This document shows, piece by piece, positions 17,702-23,564 of a stretch of DNA of 64,000 bases; within the stretch, counting starts at the first letter, position 1, and each line of letters begins with the position of its first letter. The stretch lies in contig JBOEGF010000038.1 of assembly GCA_050633305.1 (NCBI GenBank), positions 97,972 to 161,971 on the forward strand, in the 5' to 3' direction. The translations under genes and the position numbers were made by a program. The notes below the pieces were generated by a model, which saw only the letters and a list, made by a program, of their open reading frames with translations, was not told where the DNA came from and searched no databases. This DNA is from Nannocystales bacterium. GTDB lineage: Bacteria; Myxococcota_A; Polyangia; Nannocystales; Nannocystaceae.

Positions 17702-18310
17702 GTGAAAACCGATTTGCGTTCCATTCTCGAAGCAGCCGCACTCGCGGCCGCAACCCTCGTGTTCCCGGCCTGCGATAGTGAGGCCGGCGACGACACTCCG
17801 TCTGGTACCGCGGGCACAGAAGCCGGCTGCCCGGCTGCGACCGGTACTGACGCGGGCTGCCCCGGTTCGAGCTCGGGTTGCCCCGGCACGACGGCCGGTT
17901 GCCCTGCTGCCGAGCGCCCCGACGAAGTCGAAGACGTGCTCGCGGCGATCGAAGACGACAGCTACACCGGCTGGGAAGCCGAGTCCGCGGCACACCCACC
18001 GGTCGGAACCTCGCCCCACCCCGGAGAAGTCCGAACGTTTTTTAATCCGGAGCTGGCCGAGTCCATGGGCGCCGGTAACACCGAACACCCGCTGGGCTCA
18101 GCAGCGATCAAGGAGTCGTGGATGGACGGTGAGCTCGCCGGGTGGTTCATCGAGGTCAAGGTGGCTGAAGGCACTGGCCCCGAGACCTGGTACTGGTGGT
18201 CCGACCTTGCGGGCGTCGACGCGCTCGGCGGCGATGCCTCGGTGATGGGGTGTGTCGGTTGCCATGCCGCGGGTACCGACTACGTCACGACGGCGTACCC
18301 GCTCGAGTAG
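17702..18310 (+). CDS. Cytochrome P460-like c-type cytochrome lipoprotein
   Basis: Lipobox VFPAC; VRTFFN...GSAAIKE...WYWW...CVGCH near C-terminus; four GCP repeats in the linker. Confidence 0.75.
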   Translation: MKTDLRSILEAAALAAATLVFPACDSEAGDDTPSGTAGTEAGCPAATGTDAGCPGSSSGCPGTTAGCPAAERPDEVEDVLAAIEDDSYTGWEAESAAHPPVGTSPHPGEVRTFFNPELAESMGAGNTEHPLGSAAIKESWMDGELAGWFIEVKVAEGTGPETWYWWSDLAGVDALGGDASVMGCVGCHAAGTDYVTTAYPLE

Positions 18311-18438: not shown

Positions 18439-18909
18439 TCATGTGCGATCCTGCGGGTCACGTTCAGGCCGTACGTCCACCGATGAGCCTGCCGTTCGTT
18501 GGCCTCGTCGAGATGGCTCGAACCGCGCGTTTGCATCGAAGAGGTGCGGCATCGTCTTGCGTAGGTCACCCAGCCTCTCGTCGAAGGTCATCGTGTAGCG
18601 CCCGGGGATGGGCCCCGTGTCCAGGAGCGGCGCGCAAGGGATCATGACGTGGTAGCCGGAGCCATCGCGCTCGAGAGGGCGCTGGTAGACGTAGAGGCGG
18701 TCTCGGTCAGCGTCTTGGATGAACAACACGGTCGCTGTGCACGCGTCGTAGTTCTCCAGCCACAACGTGCCAGCGCGTCGCAGTCGGGCTTGCCGTTCGC
18801 GTTCGTCGGCGAGGTCGCGAGGACACAGCAGTGGGGCTTGCCAGACGTGGTGGCGCGGTAGTGAAGATGGAAGCTCGGTCACGGGGCGCATGTAGAAAAT
18901 CTCAGACAT
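18439..18909 (-). CDS. Hypothetical protein, possible MNIO partner (weakly MbnC-like)
   Basis: Overlaps the end of the MbnB-like gene; AGTLWLENYDACTATVL recalls a segment of MbnC as remembered, not aligned. Confidence 0.6.
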   Translation of the reverse strand: MSEIFYMRPVTELPSSLPRHHVWQAPLLCPRDLADERERQARLRRAGTLWLENYDACTATVLFIQDADRDRLYVYQRPLERDGSGYHVMIPCAPLLDTGPIPGRYTMTFDERLGDLRKTMPHLFDANARFEPSRRGQRTAGSSVDVRPERDPQDRT

Positions 18910-19777
18910 CGCGGAGCTCCGGGGCGGGTCGAGTTTCGGCCGGTGGCCGTGTCAGGGCTTGGTTTAGGCGACGGAGGTCGTCGGCGACGTCGCTGGCAGT
19001 CTTCTCTTTCTCCCGTTCGAGGCAGATCGACCGCAGTTGGCCCTGTCGGCCAAGAAGCGCGACCAGGTCCAGGCTCGCTGGGCTCAGTGGATCTCCGTGT
19101 GAGTCCCGCAGTTTGCCGTCGTGAGGGTCGAGGCGGTAACCGCCTACGTGAGCGTGGACTGGCGCCTGGCTGAGCAGCGAACTCCAGGCGTGCACCGGGT
19201 CTCCCCCGTTGGTTTCGGCGACGATCGCATTGGAGACATCGAAGAGCAGCCCGGCTCCTGTTCGTCGGAGTACCTCACCGGCAAAGTCGGCCTGGCCCAC
19301 TCCCTGTGGGCCAGCAGAGGCGATGTTCTCCAGCAACAGGCGACGGCCGGTGGCCTCTTGGTATCGCTGGACTCGCCGGCACGTCTGTTCGAGGTCTGCC
19401 TCATAGTCGAGGTCCTCCGGCTGCGCCAGGTAGCGGTCGCCGGCCACGGTACGCAGCAGGTGGTCGGAGACGTAGACGGGATCCAAGGCACGAATGTGCG
19501 TGGACATGCAGTCGAGAATCCGGTCGAGGCGTTCGGCGGAGGTGTGGACGAATCCGGTCCACATGACGTGTAGTGCGACCCGTGGGGCGAGCGCCTCGAA
19601 GCTTCGAGCAATGACGTCGGGATCGAGGTGGAGGTAGTTGTCCCAGAGAATCTCGACGAACGTCAGTGCGTCCTGACGGCCGGCCATGGCCACCGCATCG
19701 GCGTACAGGCTGAAGTCGGTGAGGTTATTGACGCTCAGGGTTGCTTCGGTCGGCGAGGATGCGCTGAACTCGTTCAT
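18902..19777 (-). CDS. DUF692/MNIO multinuclear non-heme iron oxidase, MbnB-like
   Basis: EILWDNYLHL, ALHVM, YVSDHL, LLLEN, TGAGLLFDVSNA, HAHVGGY, DSH and LER: full iron-ligand set and MbnB-type wording. Confidence 0.9.
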   Translation of the reverse strand: MNEFSASSPTEATLSVNNLTDFSLYADAVAMAGRQDALTFVEILWDNYLHLDPDVIARSFEALAPRVALHVMWTGFVHTSAERLDRILDCMSTHIRALDPVYVSDHLLRTVAGDRYLAQPEDLDYEADLEQTCRRVQRYQEATGRRLLLENIASAGPQGVGQADFAGEVLRRTGAGLLFDVSNAIVAETNGGDPVHAWSSLLSQAPVHAHVGGYRLDPHDGKLRDSHGDPLSPASLDLVALLGRQGQLRSICLEREKEKTASDVADDLRRLNQALTRPPAETRPAPELRDV

Positions 19778-20867
19778 GGACGTAGTTTCGGAAGCTGTGC
19801 AGGGGATCGACGATGCTCGCTCCGGCTCGAGCCAAGGCGTGCTCCCCGAAGCTCGGGATCTCGTGCGGCGCAGCTTTGCGCTCGAGGATGAATTGGTCTG
19901 CCCACTCACCCACGATGCTGCGAAAGAGCGACGGACCCAGCAGAGCGTGCAGCTGTGGTTCTCTGCGGGCGAAGATCAAGTTGTTCAGCAGACCCACCGC
20001 GACTCGCTCCTCGTCGACCTCAACTGGGGTTCGTCGTCGCGTGTTGGCCACCAACTCGGCGACACGGTCGAACTCGGCGCGATAGCCTTCGGGTCGTTCG
20101 GCCCACACGGGGTCGGTGTGCTCGACGACCACGGTCAGTGGCTGGTCCGCCACGCGGAGCACGGCGCATAGCAACTCGAGGACCTCTTCGGCTAGGGGCT
20201 CACCATGGGCGTCATGCCAGACGCCTCGACGGTCCTTCTTCACCCCGGACAAGTGGATGCAACTGACAAGGTCGAGGTCGACGAAGCCGAGCATCATGGT
20301 CGACGAGATGCCGCAGTTGCGGGCGTGAACACACAGGTGGGCGAGATCGAGGACCATGGAGATGCCCTCGGTGGCACACAACGCGTTGGCCAAAGCCCAG
20401 GCACGTCGAATCGCACCCAGGTCCACGTCGTAGAAGTTTGCGTTCTCGATCAGAATCGGCCACGGCAAGCGTTCACGGGCCGTGTCGAAAAACCGCCGGG
20501 CGGCGCGATCGTTGTCCTCGGTCGAGACATACGCGGGCCCAGCTCCAAGCCAGCCCATGCCCGAACGGTATGGACCGCACAGGTGCACGCCGATGGAGTC
20601 TACGCATGGCGGCGCGCGCTCCAACACGTCGTCGAGGAAGGCGTCTTGAATGGGTGGTCGTTCGCAGACGGGCGCTCGGGACAGGTGCACAGAGCGGTGT
20701 TTGATGGAGGCGAGAGCCTGGCCCTTCTCACAGCCGATCGCGTTCCACCCCGCTTCGAGATGTTCGACATACGGCGGCAAGTCGAGATGACCGTCGACGA
20801 TGGCCGGGGTGTAGCCACAGCCAATGCGGTGTGTGACCGATTGGGAGAAAGGGGCGGGCATGGGCAA
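19725..20867 (-). CDS. DUF692/MNIO iron enzyme with about 100-aa C-terminal extension
   Basis: SVHL, GVHL, ILIEN, LDLAH, IHLSG, HDAH and VVEH ligands; extension PQLHALLGPSLF recalls DUF2063-type partner domains. Confidence 0.88.
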   Translation of the reverse strand: MPMPAPFSQSVTHRIGCGYTPAIVDGHLDLPPYVEHLEAGWNAIGCEKGQALASIKHRSVHLSRAPVCERPPIQDAFLDDVLERAPPCVDSIGVHLCGPYRSGMGWLGAGPAYVSTEDNDRAARRFFDTARERLPWPILIENANFYDVDLGAIRRAWALANALCATEGISMVLDLAHLCVHARNCGISSTMMLGFVDLDLVSCIHLSGVKKDRRGVWHDAHGEPLAEEVLELLCAVLRVADQPLTVVVEHTDPVWAERPEGYRAEFDRVAELVANTRRRTPVEVDEERVAVGLLNNLIFARREPQLHALLGPSLFRSIVGEWADQFILERKAAPHEIPSFGEHALARAGASIVDPLHSFRNYVHERVQRILADRSNPERQ

Positions 20868-20893
20868 CTCTGCGATACAGGCGGGGGGGCGCA

Positions 20894-20913
20894 GGACGCT
20901 CGGGCGAGCGTCC
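20894..20913. promoter_or_regulatory. Perfect GC-rich stem-loop between precursor and first enzyme gene
   Basis: GGACGCTC-gggc-GAGCGTCC, an 8-bp inverted repeat with no clear U-tract. Confidence 0.55.
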
Positions 20914-20935
20914 CACGCGGTCGTCGCGGTAGGGC

Positions 20936-21112
20936 CTACGCGACCGTGATGATGTAGTCGCCGCAGGTTGCAGGAGCCGACACGGGGACCGCTGGCGCTG
21001 CCGCTCTGGCACCCCCGACCACGGCCTGGAGCACTGCGGTGTCGAGAGAGTCGAGCGTCCGGGTTTGACGGTCGTCGTTGCGGGGGCTCTTGTTATTGTT
21101 CTTGTTGGTCAT
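20936..21112 (-). CDS. RiPP precursor peptide, 58 aa, double-glycine leader
   Basis: Manual translation: MTNKNNNKSPRNDDRQTRTLDSLDTAVLQAVVGG-ARAAAPAVPVSAPATCGDYIITVA*; GAAGAG upstream of the ATG; shorter than any ORF in the track. Confidence 0.85.
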   Translation of the reverse strand: MTNKNNNKSPRNDDRQTRTLDSLDTAVLQAVVGGARAAAPAVPVSAPATCGDYIITVA

Positions 21113-21139
21113 CGTTGTTGCTCTTCGTTTGTTGTTGGT

Positions 21140-21640
21140 TCAGGGAGTGAGCAGCCGCTTGGATAGCCACAGCTCGTCGTGGAATTTTCCGCCCAGCATG
21201 AGCGCGTCGCAGCGCCGCCCCTCGACCTCGAACCCCAGGCCGCGGTACAGCTCCAGGGCGCGTAGGTTGTCTTCGCGGACGGTCAGCTCGACCCGTCGGA
21301 TTCCGTTGCGAGTGGCATGGGCCAGCGCGGTCTCGAACAGCCGCCGCCCGATGCCGAATCCCCAGTGCTGCTGGAGCACGCCGATCCACGCGCGCGCCAC
21401 GTGGGCGTTGCGCTGCAATCCGCCCCGCTGCATTCCGCAGAGCGCGACGATGTGGCACCCGTCGAGGGCAACGAACGTCCACGCCGTGGAATGCTCCAGC
21501 ATGCTGCGTGTGCTGGTCTCCGAGACCTCCTCTGGGGCAGGGAGGAGGAGGTCCGTCTGTCGAGCCAGAGCCTGGCGCAACTCGAAGATGGGCAGTGTCT
21601 CTGCCGAGTTGGCGAGTCGGTATTCGAAACTGGGCGTCAT
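21140..21640 (-). CDS. GNAT family N-acetyltransferase
   Basis: IGVLQQHWGFGIGRRL acetyl-CoA motif; VELTVREDNLRALELYRGLGF. Confidence 0.9.
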   Translation of the reverse strand: MTPSFEYRLANSAETLPIFELRQALARQTDLLLPAPEEVSETSTRSMLEHSTAWTFVALDGCHIVALCGMQRGGLQRNAHVARAWIGVLQQHWGFGIGRRLFETALAHATRNGIRRVELTVREDNLRALELYRGLGFEVEGRRCDALMLGGKFHDELWLSKRLLTP

Positions 21641-22584: not shown

Positions 22585-22790
22585 AACGGGGAGCTGATGA
22601 TGCGACGGAACACGGCGATGACCGAGGGGCAGGGCTCGGACACGACAATGGCGACGGTCTATCGAGATGCGGTCGCTGGCACGCTCGAGCGTGTGATCGA
22701 CGCGCAGGTCAGGGCGCTCTCGGACGACCTCGTTTGAAACGTCGGGCAGGCACGCGCGTTGCTTCGCCCAACCCCACCCAACTCAGGCCC

Positions 22791-23564
22791 ATGCGACCTC
22801 CCCATCTCAGTCTCTCGCCAGCCATCACCGCTTTCGTCTCGGCGATGGCCTGCAGCAGCCCCTCCCCCGAAGATCCCTTGGTGACGACGCAGCAGCCGAC
22901 GGCTTCGCCCAACGCCATCGAGCACAATCGTGTTCCACAGGATGCGCAGCGAGACGCGCTTCGACACCCCGAGGTGTTCATGGACTTCGCTGGTGTGGCT
23001 CCCGGCCACCAGGTTCTCGAGCTCGGCGGAGGCGACGGCTACACCTCGATGCACATTGCACGGCGCGCGGGCCCTTCGGGCGGCGTGTTGGCGGTCAACC
23101 CCCCGCAGTGGAGCACGTTCATGCGGCCCTACATCGCAGCCCGGTTGGCAAACGGGCCCGTCGCTGGCCTCACCTTCGCCGAGCGGCCGTTCGACGACCC
23201 CGTGCCACCGGGGCATGTGCCTTTGGACCTCGTCGTCTGCGTGCTCATCTACCACGACATCCTCTACATCGACGTCGACCGCGCACGGATGAACGAACGC
23301 CTGTTTGCCGCCCTCGAGCCGGGAGGGAAACTTCTCATCATCGATCACGCCGCTGGGGACCCGAACGACCTCTCGGTCGGGGGAACGCTGCACCGGATCG
23401 GCAAGGACGCCGTGATCGACGAGGTCACGGCGGCCGGCTTCTCGTTGGTGAACGAATCGGACGCGCTCAGCATGCCCGAAGACCCACATACCGGGCTTGC
23501 ATGGACCGACCCGCAACCCCGTACCGACCGCTTCGTGCTGTTGTTTGAGAAGCCGAAACGCTGA
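22791..23564 (+). CDS. Class I SAM-dependent methyltransferase, lipoprotein-like
   Basis: RDALRHPE, VLELGGGDGY, ALEPGGKLLIIDH, LHRI and TDRFVL motifs; SAMAC lipobox-like. Confidence 0.85.
   Translation: MRPPHLSLSPAITAFVSAMACSSPSPEDPLVTTQQPTASPNAIEHNRVPQDAQRDALRHPEVFMDFAGVAPGHQVLELGGGDGYTSMHIARRAGPSGGVLAVNPPQWSTFMRPYIAARLANGPVAGLTFAERPFDDPVPPGHVPLDLVVCVLIYHDILYIDVDRARMNERLFAALEPGGKLLIIDHAAGDPNDLSVGGTLHRIGKDAVIDEVTAAGFSLVNESDALSMPEDPHTGLAWTDPQPRTDRFVLLFEKPKR

Follow-up and report, generated by a model that had tools for sequence, protein, structure and literature searches.

The methanobactin-like operons of Group V, from Vibrio caribbenthicus and Photorhabdus luminescens, encode an MbnA-like peptide, an extra DUF692-like gene, MbnB and MbnC, a layout that has been in print since 2013 (Kenney and Rosenzweig; PMC3621798). 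Their peptide has a single Cys, there is no TonB-dependent importer, the multidrug and toxic compound extrusion (MATE) protein is a dissimilar one, and the extra gene, which lies between those for MbnA and MbnB, has weak similarity to DUF692 (PMC3621798). The operon was later named mov (MovA/X/B/C). Here we describe a five-gene cluster in a 64,000-nucleotide stretch of DNA from a Nannocystales bacterium (assembly GCA_050633305.1, contig JBOEGF010000038.1, positions 97,972 to 161,971; hereafter “the window”), composed of a GCN5-related N-acetyltransferase (GNAT), a precursor peptide (A), two oxidative enzymes that depend on multinuclear non-heme iron (MNIOs; MNIO-1 or X, and MNIO-2 or B) and a partner protein (C). 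The cluster, in the order GNAT–A–X–B–C, is in our judgment likely to be a divergent member of the mov, or Group V methanobactin-like, family of RiPPs (ribosomally synthesized peptides with post-translational modifications). Its two-MNIO layout is already known; the new part is a sub-branch whose peptides have lost the Asn that is the hallmark of the family.

The primary Mov report is said to describe a 23-residue precursor, two MNIOs, a RiPP recognition element (RRE) protein and a transporter, with a heterocycle reportedly formed at a Thr-Cys dyad and the penultimate Asn as the site of cleavage. To our knowledge, MovX is the only MNIO that makes a C-terminal amide by N–Cα scission, and it has been described as acting on Asn only. 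The MovX of the literature is partner-independent, carries an extra RRE-like or winged helix-turn-helix extension, and cleaves the N–Cα bond at Asn to leave the amide (PMC12452194, PMC12912966, and PMC11252979). The MbnABC complex of Group V has been solved (7DZ9), its 23-residue VcMbnA ending in MTCGAFNK, and the modified VcMbnA binds Cu2+; in the solved complexes the N-terminal helical domain of MbnC packs between two MbnB loops (PMC8888699). The nature of the MovA heterocycle is disputed, since the oxazolone-thioamide assignments may correspond to a 5-thiooxazole (PMC13097082).

Gene layout and related loci

All five frames are intact and co-oriented on the minus strand: the GNAT gene (21140–21640), the gene of the 58-residue precursor (20936–21112, delimited by its open reading frame (ORF) translation and by alignment to nine precursors of related loci), MNIO-1 (19725–20867), MNIO-2 (18902–19777) and the gene of the 156-residue partner (18439–18909). 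The GNAT gene is 27 nt from the peptide gene and the peptide gene 68 nt from MNIO-1, while MNIO-2 overlaps MNIO-1 by 53 nt and the partner gene by 8 nt. An earlier annotation made from the letters alone (the sequence-only reading) had described five co-oriented, tightly packed genes of which the last three overlap, and the ORF coordinates agree with it on both counts. The host genome is 11.0 Mb in 90 contigs, with ≈ 65% G+C around the cluster.

A scan that took one genome from each species gave nine loci with a member of the MNIO-1 family, hosted by a Halothece metagenome-assembled genome (MAG), an Acidimicrobiales MAG, Bdellovibrionaceae, Chlamydiales, Legionella, two Xenorhabdus species, Sororendozoicomonas, and one uncultured bacterium; they span at least six phyla, with one host unclassified. 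The X gene is present in all nine, with an MbnB-like gene directly downstream in seven, the other two being cut by a contig end (Legionella, L013) or decayed (Sororendozoicomonas, L015). Every one of the nine has a peptide ending in T-C-[GA]-x-Y-N plus one or two residues, encoded directly upstream of X in seven loci, separated from X by a GNAT gene in Halothece (L008), and after the partner gene in Acidimicrobiales (L009). The search for the same gene order and for a peptide beside homologous enzymes, which the sequence-only reading had suggested as a check, returns nine loci with the peptide in each. Together, the A–X–B–C loci, the MbnB iron ligands described below, and the T-C core uphold its proposal of a methanobactin-related RiPP cluster. 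The statement that the architecture was not recognizable fails, because the mov layout had already been described, recurs in the nine loci, and has peptides that NCBI names MovA.

Some of the related loci have features of their own. In Sororendozoicomonas (L015, 7836–9243) X is in pieces and B is gone, with the MovA peptide, the partner, and the MATE gene remaining, and in Xenorhabdus lircayensis (L016, 294–3258) X is split over two frames and the MATE gene is fragmentary; judged from these frames, both are decaying mov clusters. The Acidimicrobiales locus (L009, 3850–7157) has the order X–B–C–A followed by an asparagine-synthase-like ORF and an NlpC/P60 ORF, the former recalling the amidation and nitrile enzymes of PMC13060819. 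Just upstream of the mov-type precursor of L011 (7021–7623), the same repeated peptide words (...LLPHRQLRN...) occur in several frames, which indicates a short DNA unit repeated at regular spacing, possibly a CRISPR-like array.

The precursor peptide and the Asn-less clade

The precursor consists of a 34-residue leader ending in VVGG, followed by a 24-residue core ending in SAPATCGDYIITVA; the Gly-Gly motif named in the sequence-only reading is indeed present, and the core behind it has one Cys. The single cysteine, Cys50, sits in a Thr49-Cys50 dyad and is followed by Gly, Asp, and Tyr53, and then by Ile54 where the relatives have Asn. When the peptide is aligned with the nine locus precursors, the Thr, Cys, and Tyr are invariant (10 of 10), and Asn follows the Tyr in all except the window peptide (9 of 10). 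The odd C-terminus is not a sequencing slip, because a near-identical peptide on a separate 941-nt contig (P0009, Q29E) carries the same C-terminus.

A profile built from the ten precursors found 14 peptides, seven of which are named “methanobactin-like peptide MovA” by NCBI and come from Vibrio fluvialis, V. cholerae, V. chagasii, and Xenorhabdus; the name is attached to the 23-residue gammaproteobacterial versions. Asn follows the aromatic residue in 9 of the 11 profile hits that were fetched, and the two exceptions, P0056 (69 residues) and P0063 (57 residues), both belong with the window peptide, to which they are 46% and 53% identical, respectively. The three distinct precursors have in common a leader LDxxLLxx[IV]VGG followed by A[RK] (the wider motif LxxxxLxx[IV]VGG is likewise found in 3/3) and a core end APATCGDYI[IM]T with two to three further residues, so that the tail after the Tyr is 5–6 residues long and starts with Ile in place of Asn. 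The longest contig of P0063, at 7878 nt, equals in length that of P0003, the 58%-identical homologue of MNIO-1. Since the Asn-less core and the Gly-Gly leader are kept in three peptides that are only 46%–53% identical, selection is indicated. Judged by these alignments, the window and three metagenomic relatives form a clade in which the hallmark Asn is gone, a conserved and undescribed variant that combines a leader of double-glycine type, Ile at the position of the MovX substrate residue, a longer conserved tail, and a short partner protein. The variant is not mentioned in the full texts that our literature search covered; the primary Mov report and its supplement, which lay outside that set, may bear on its novelty. 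The sequence-only reading, right about a real RiPP cluster with two MNIOs, had overlooked this truly unusual feature.

The curated families say little about such peptides. Only two of the nine locus precursors pass the model NF050127 (MbnA_like_MovA, cut-off 33 bits), those of L014 with 42.9 and L015 with 56.9 bits; that of L016 reaches 31.3 bits and the long-leader peptides 0–19 bits. The model is thus narrow, as all long-leader members fail it. The window peptide matches no curated family in Pfam or NCBIfam.

Two further observations concern the peptide gene itself. The first 13 leader codons (21040–21112, minus strand) are rich in AAC, AAG, and AAT (M-T-N-K-N-N-N-K...) despite the ≈ 65% G+C of the region, and the leader starts of both clade relatives are likewise rich in Lys and Asn. 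Between the precursor gene and MNIO-1, folding gives a weak signal for a putative 13-bp stem-loop (20889–20918, minus strand): the 79-nt spacer folds at −33.1 kcal/mol (z −2.43), with 5 of 200 shuffles equally stable. No T-run follows the stem-loop and it was not called in the terminator scan; the scan of the locus gave no promoter-like site and a single terminator-like site on the wrong strand, 2.1 being expected by chance.

The two MNIO enzymes

Both enzymes were predicted to be MNIOs by the sequence-only reading, and PF05114 (cut-off 25 bits) bears this out with 57.3 bits for MNIO-1 and 88.9 bits for MNIO-2. MNIO-1 starts with TTG at 20867, with an ATG at 20861, and its PF05114 match spans only residues 127–250. 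The AlphaFold2 model has a mean predicted local distance difference test score (pLDDT) of 90.0 and consists of a TIM barrel (about residues 1–273) and a helical C-terminal extension of ≈ 100 residues (284–372), its top Foldseek matches being TglH (6e-12), MbnB (2e-9), and the DUF692 entry 3bww. Fourteen H/D/E/N columns show no variation among all 12 aligned family members, namely H59, H93, E139, N140, N142, D172, H175, N182, H203, H216, D217, H219, E247, and H248, and the extension aligns family-wide, with W320 invariant. In sequence, MNIO-1 has no match in the PDB and shares only 25%–28% identity with the X proteins from Xenorhabdus, Chlamydiales, and Bdellovibrionaceae. Its best NCBIfam match is a weak one to ApyH (57.1 bits, cut-off 400); the X proteins of canonical mov loci give the same weak pattern, and the NCBIfam library holds no MovX model.

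A tree of 19 rows separates a monophyletic X family from the B proteins (100/100) and groups the window X with P0002–P0004 (100/100). The proposal in the sequence-only reading that two different MNIOs act on one peptide is probably right. Within the X clade is also the X protein of L014, a locus with a peptide that the MovA model accepts; on the strength of the tree and the alignment, MNIO-1 belongs to the MovX family and has the C-terminal extension described for MovX. Three changes in MNIO-1 are specific to the clade: G218A, between D217 and H219; A61S, after H59; and Y291L in the C-terminal domain. The residues A218, S61, and L291 are candidate specificity determinants.

MNIO-1 is rare. From 5.8 billion clusters, 8000 word-sharing candidates were scored, and eight proteins among them matched at E ≤ 0.001. 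In the window's phylum, 401 genomes were searched and the sole match was the genome of the window itself, two hits at 1e-11 to 1e-12 being other MNIOs. No X-family members beyond the seed genome turned up in 201 genomes of the family to which the Xenorhabdus genome belongs, or in a sample of 401 genomes from the phylum that includes the Acidimicrobiales genome. A metagenome scan with the MNIO-1 alignment gave 217 pattern matches with no relative among them.

MNIO-2 (291 residues) starts at the ATG at 19777, and no later start fits, because homologue alignments begin at residue 8–10. It matches the solved MbnB chains in the PDB at E values of 7e-30 to 3e-28. Alignment to the Vibrio MbnB of 7DZ9 shows that all eight iron ligands of VcMbnB are kept: H70, H106, E150, and D180 align with VcMbnB H55, H91, E135, and D165, and N183, H210, D225, and E254 with N168, H194, D209, and E238, while H227 aligns with H211. 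The catalytic base D240 is Glu256 in MNIO-2; a D242E variant of RrMbnB is reported to have stayed active (PMC8888699). The MbnB equivalog TIGR04159 scores MNIO-2 at 159.5 bits, under its cut-off of 325; since the B protein of a bona fide mov locus in Xenorhabdus also falls short (212.3 bits), the model does not cover Group V. In the same tree as above, the window B groups with the B proteins of Halothece, Acidimicrobiales, and a metagenome locus (95/82).

The host genome has five further PF05114 loci (L001–L004 and L006, on contigs C32, C7, C11, C15, and C67), three of which score 322–329 bits, typical of the large bufferin/HvfB-like group; the organism thus carries several MNIO systems.

The partner protein

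The 156-residue protein occupies the position of MbnC and matches no Pfam or NCBIfam family, TIGR04160 included; it is 31%–32% identical to the ORFs in the same position of the Halothece and Acidimicrobiales loci. The longer partners of other loci (176–184 residues) are MbnC: a profile that includes the long type matched the Vibrio MbnC chain 7dz9_D at 2.3e-28, and against TIGR04160 the partners of L011 and L014 score 81.3 and 28.9 bits. A profile of the short type alone gave no match to MbnC in the PDB.

Although its structural model is poor, the three best rows of a Foldseek search over 350,542 chains are MbnC (E 0.055–0.5), and when the model was realigned the top four of 988 chains were all MbnC, with Z scores of 7.2, 6.3, 6.2, and 6.0, the next being 4.4. 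The fold alignments have root-mean-square deviations of 3.8–4.1 Å over 90–92 residues and take in the C-terminal β-sheet domain of MbnC only. A profile search of the full database found 43 relatives of the short partner, and two of these, P0016 (403 residues) and P0018 (419 residues), are natural fusions of an MbnB-like MNIO (TIGR04159 ≈ 131 bits) with a C-terminal short-partner domain. On the basis of the model we read the protein as a putative short MbnC without the N-terminal helical domain; the position, the four fold matches, and the two fusions support its designation as the partner, as the sequence-only reading had it.

The metagenome scan with the short-partner alignment gave four loci (L024–L027), each with an MbnB-like gene and a short partner. 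No X gene and no T-C-G-x-Y peptide were found in them, and they say nothing about the window's clade. In one of them (L025, 4380–6387) the product of the gene directly upstream, 238 residues long with an HExxH-like motif and a C-terminus rich in Cys (...CCDTYSSCSYDPNGCTP), may be a large precursor of a different MbnB/short-MbnC system.

The GNAT, export and flanking genes

The GNAT has 166 residues from the ATG at 21640, its ORF being open up to 22006, and matches PF00583 with 52.3 bits (cut-off 20.7); its translation shows QHWGFG, the acetyl-CoA loop Q-x-x-G-x-G. A GNAT gene is present in three of the nine related loci, in variable position (ahead of A, behind the MATE gene, or on the other strand). 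The GNATs of the Chlamydiales (L012, E 4.8e-14) and Legionella (2.7e-5) loci match only the window GNAT when searched by tblastn against the whole 11-Mb genome, while that of Halothece is of another type. The same type thus adjoins two other clusters of the family, and by this resemblance the GNAT seems to be more than a neighbor. GNATs occur only with precursors of at least 48 residues (58 in the window, 52 in L012, 48 in L013, 115 in L008) and in none of the four loci with precursors of 23–27 residues, which fits acetylation of an N-terminus exposed by removal of a leader.

A scan of the 13 ORFs that flank the cluster between 11379 and 30098 showed no MATE gene and no gene for MbnM, MbnT, MbnN, or MbnPH. 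The sequence-only reading had pointed to the missing methanobactin transport and aminotransferase genes, and they are indeed missing here, but this does not set the locus apart, as it is normal for Group V. Five C39-peptidase ORFs (741–971 residues) lie elsewhere in the genome, none on the contig of the cluster.

Convergent on the partner gene is a plus-strand ORF of 202 residues (17702–18310) without a Pfam match at 1e-3. Its N-terminus resembles that of a lipoprotein, with a Cys after an Ala-rich stretch, a heme-binding-type CxxCH motif (GCVGCH) lies in its C-terminus, and it could be a small c-type cytochrome. A further plus-strand ORF of 276 residues (22734–23564), also without a Pfam match at 1e-3, has a lipoprotein-like start and a Gly-rich VLELGGGDG resembling the motif of S-adenosylmethionine-dependent methyltransferases. 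It is probably unrelated, because a divergently transcribed SRPBCC gene separates it from the cluster. Searches of four genomes from the same family gave no match to the flanking SRPBCC protein and, for the sigma factor, nothing but paralogues at ≈ 30% identity. Near-identical contigs of the locus, at a depth of ≈ 2–4, occur in the DNA run of one microbial-mat metagenome, which may be the source sample of the genome; the sequencing-run search listed no RNA run with the locus.

Proposed pathway and alternative explanations

The assignment of the proteins to their families, the conservation of the metal ligands, and that of the precursor motif are direct observations, and the cluster is real and almost certainly functional. 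In the pathway we propose, the 58-residue precursor would be bound through its leader by MNIO-2 together with the short MbnC-like partner, which would carry out a four-electron oxidation of Cys50, which with the Thr49 carbonyl would form one oxazolone-thioamide or the isomeric 5-thiooxazole. By analogy with the described systems, a heterocycle at Thr-Cys is the step we would expect with most confidence. MNIO-1, with a C-terminal extension of its own that would serve for recruitment, would work on the residues that follow Tyr53; that it acts on the tail at all is fairly probable, and that it does so by a MovX-like oxidative N–Cα scission specifically at Ile54 is rather doubtful. Such a cut would yield ...TCGDY-NH2 and free the 5-residue tail as an α-keto-acyl peptide. 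The leader would be cut after the conserved Gly-Gly by a C39-peptidase ATP-binding cassette (ABC) exporter encoded elsewhere in the genome, a suggestion to which we give an even chance, and the GNAT might acetylate the newly exposed N-terminus, which we put forward only tentatively. By analogy, the product would likely serve as a small metal-binding (copper) peptide. For the clade as a whole our proposal, which falls somewhat short of an even chance, is a MovX-type sub-family that no longer uses Asn and that either cuts the backbone at Ile, a branched aliphatic residue, releasing a conserved follower of 5–6 residues, or performs a new MNIO reaction on the I-[IM]-T tail; its product would be N-acetylated, ≈ 19–24 residues long, and equipped with a heterocycle, with a bacteriocin-type exporter replacing the MATE.

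Several observations weigh against this assignment and pathway. The residue on which MovX reportedly acts is absent from the window peptide, and the peptide has no match to the MovA model NF050127 at E values up to 10. The link from MNIO-1 to MovX runs through Xenorhabdus and other MovA-type loci, not through the Vibrio MovX. In sequence the partner does not detectably resemble either MbnC or the long partners (hhalign gives a probability of 0.03 between the two types); it is without the N-terminal helical domain of MbnC and has a low-confidence AlphaFold2 model (pLDDT 57.5), while Z scores of 6–7 are within the usual range of this aligner for common arrangements. The double-glycine leader rests on its motif, PF10439 giving 13.4 bits against a cut-off of 27.1. 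MatE is above cut-off after the partner gene in four of the nine related loci, and around the window cluster no exporter or protease occurs within ≈ 7 kb on either side among the 13 ORFs mentioned above. Lastly, whether MovA itself bears an oxazolone-thioamide or a thiooxazole is in dispute (PMC13097082).

The MNIO-1 of the clade may instead have changed its chemistry and modify the tail or a neighboring residue without a backbone cut, for example by hydroxylation of Ile, Asp, or Tyr or by a cross-link, with ...DYIITVA being kept, which is the main rival reading but one that we regard as unlikely. Asn is replaced in all three distinct clade precursors while the I-[IM]-T tail itself is conserved, and this is easier to explain if the tail belongs to the product; a conserved tail would, however, equally be expected if it serves for recognition and is then removed. 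Hydroxylation of Asp and Phe by MNIOs is known from other pathways (PMC13060819 and PMC12452194), and two of the clade-specific changes, G218A and A61S, adjoin ligand columns, with Y291L in the C-terminal domain, whereas all ligand columns are kept and the clade is nested inside the X family. The GNAT, for its part, might be an immunity or housekeeping acetyltransferase that travels with the cluster and has no part in tailoring. Its presence in only three of the nine loci, the variable position, and the different type in L008 would fit this, but the GNATs of L012 and L013 match nothing else in the 11-Mb genome and GNATs keep to the clusters with longer precursors, so we hold a mere traveler to be improbable.

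Much less probable is a decaying remnant that lost its Asn and exporter and makes no product. The window does lack both the MATE gene and the Asn, and decayed relatives exist (X in pieces and B absent in L015, X split over two frames in L016), yet none of the five frames in the window is disrupted, both enzymes retain all metal-ligand columns, and the diverged clade peptides have kept the Asn-less core as well as the Gly-Gly leader, a sign of selection. The least credible explanation is a new RiPP architecture unrelated to described systems, with two MNIOs acting on one core. It could appeal to the rarity of MNIO-1 (the eight proteins among 8000 candidates scored, and only its own genome among 401) and to a peptide that matches no curated family. 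We reject it in view of the gene order of the relatives, with A–X–B–C and a T-C-G-x-Y core in nine loci from at least six phyla, of the Group V operon (PMC3621798), and of the peptides named MovA. A divergent mov cluster remains our preferred reading.

Implications and comparison with known systems

The clade keeps a MovX-type enzyme and swaps Asn for Ile, and thus offers a ready-made test of where, and whether, the enzyme cuts. The mov family extends well past the gammaproteobacterial peptides of 23 residues covered by the curated MovA model, with long-leader forms in Cyanobacteria, Actinobacteria, Chlamydiae, and the window genome, and a dedicated GNAT recurs in it. The partner, if its model is right, would be a “half-size” MbnC without the domain seen clamping MbnB in crystal structures. 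The broad picture of MNIO RiPPs is unchanged; a well-defined and testable variant is added to it.

Among described systems, that of bulbicupramide was set aside as a relative, being a one-MNIO/DUF2063 system. ApyH, the MNIO of aminopyruvatide, which acts on a C-terminal Asp, is the best NCBIfam match of MNIO-1 and, like MovX, acts on the C-terminus and not on Cys; however, the score is far under the cut-off of 400, the window peptide has no C-terminal Asp, and there is neither a P450 nor an ApyI-type partner. With the canonical methanobactins of Groups I–IV the cluster shares an MbnB-type MNIO (E ≈ 1e-29) and, if the weak model is right, a partner with an MbnC-like C-terminal fold, as well as, by analogy, Cys-centered heterocycle chemistry. 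It differs from them in having one Cys in place of two or more, a second MNIO, and no genes for transport, regulation, or aminotransferase, and in its TIGR04159 score (159.5 against 325 bits).

The closest genomic relatives are the Halothece and Acidimicrobiales loci, which have the same short type of partner, the X (31%–37%) and B (40%–42%) proteins nearest to those of the window, and long precursors of 101–115 residues, with a GNAT in Halothece as well. Their peptides, however, still end in Y-N-(I)L and have no Gly-Gly motif before the core, and in Acidimicrobiales the precursor gene comes after the partner gene. The mov/Group V operon itself has the same order of peptide, X-MNIO with C-terminal extension, MbnB-like MNIO, and partner, the same Thr-Cys dyad holding the only Cys, with G/A, any residue, and an aromatic one behind it, and, like the window cluster, is without TonB-dependent importer and aminotransferase and keeps all MbnB iron ligands. 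In contrast to that operon, the window has a 58-residue precursor with a 34-residue Gly-Gly leader instead of a 23-residue peptide, a peptide that fails NF050127, a partner without the N-terminal domain or the sequence match of MbnC, and a GNAT but no MATE exporter; after the aromatic residue it has Ile where mov has Asn, and a tail of five residues instead of one or two.

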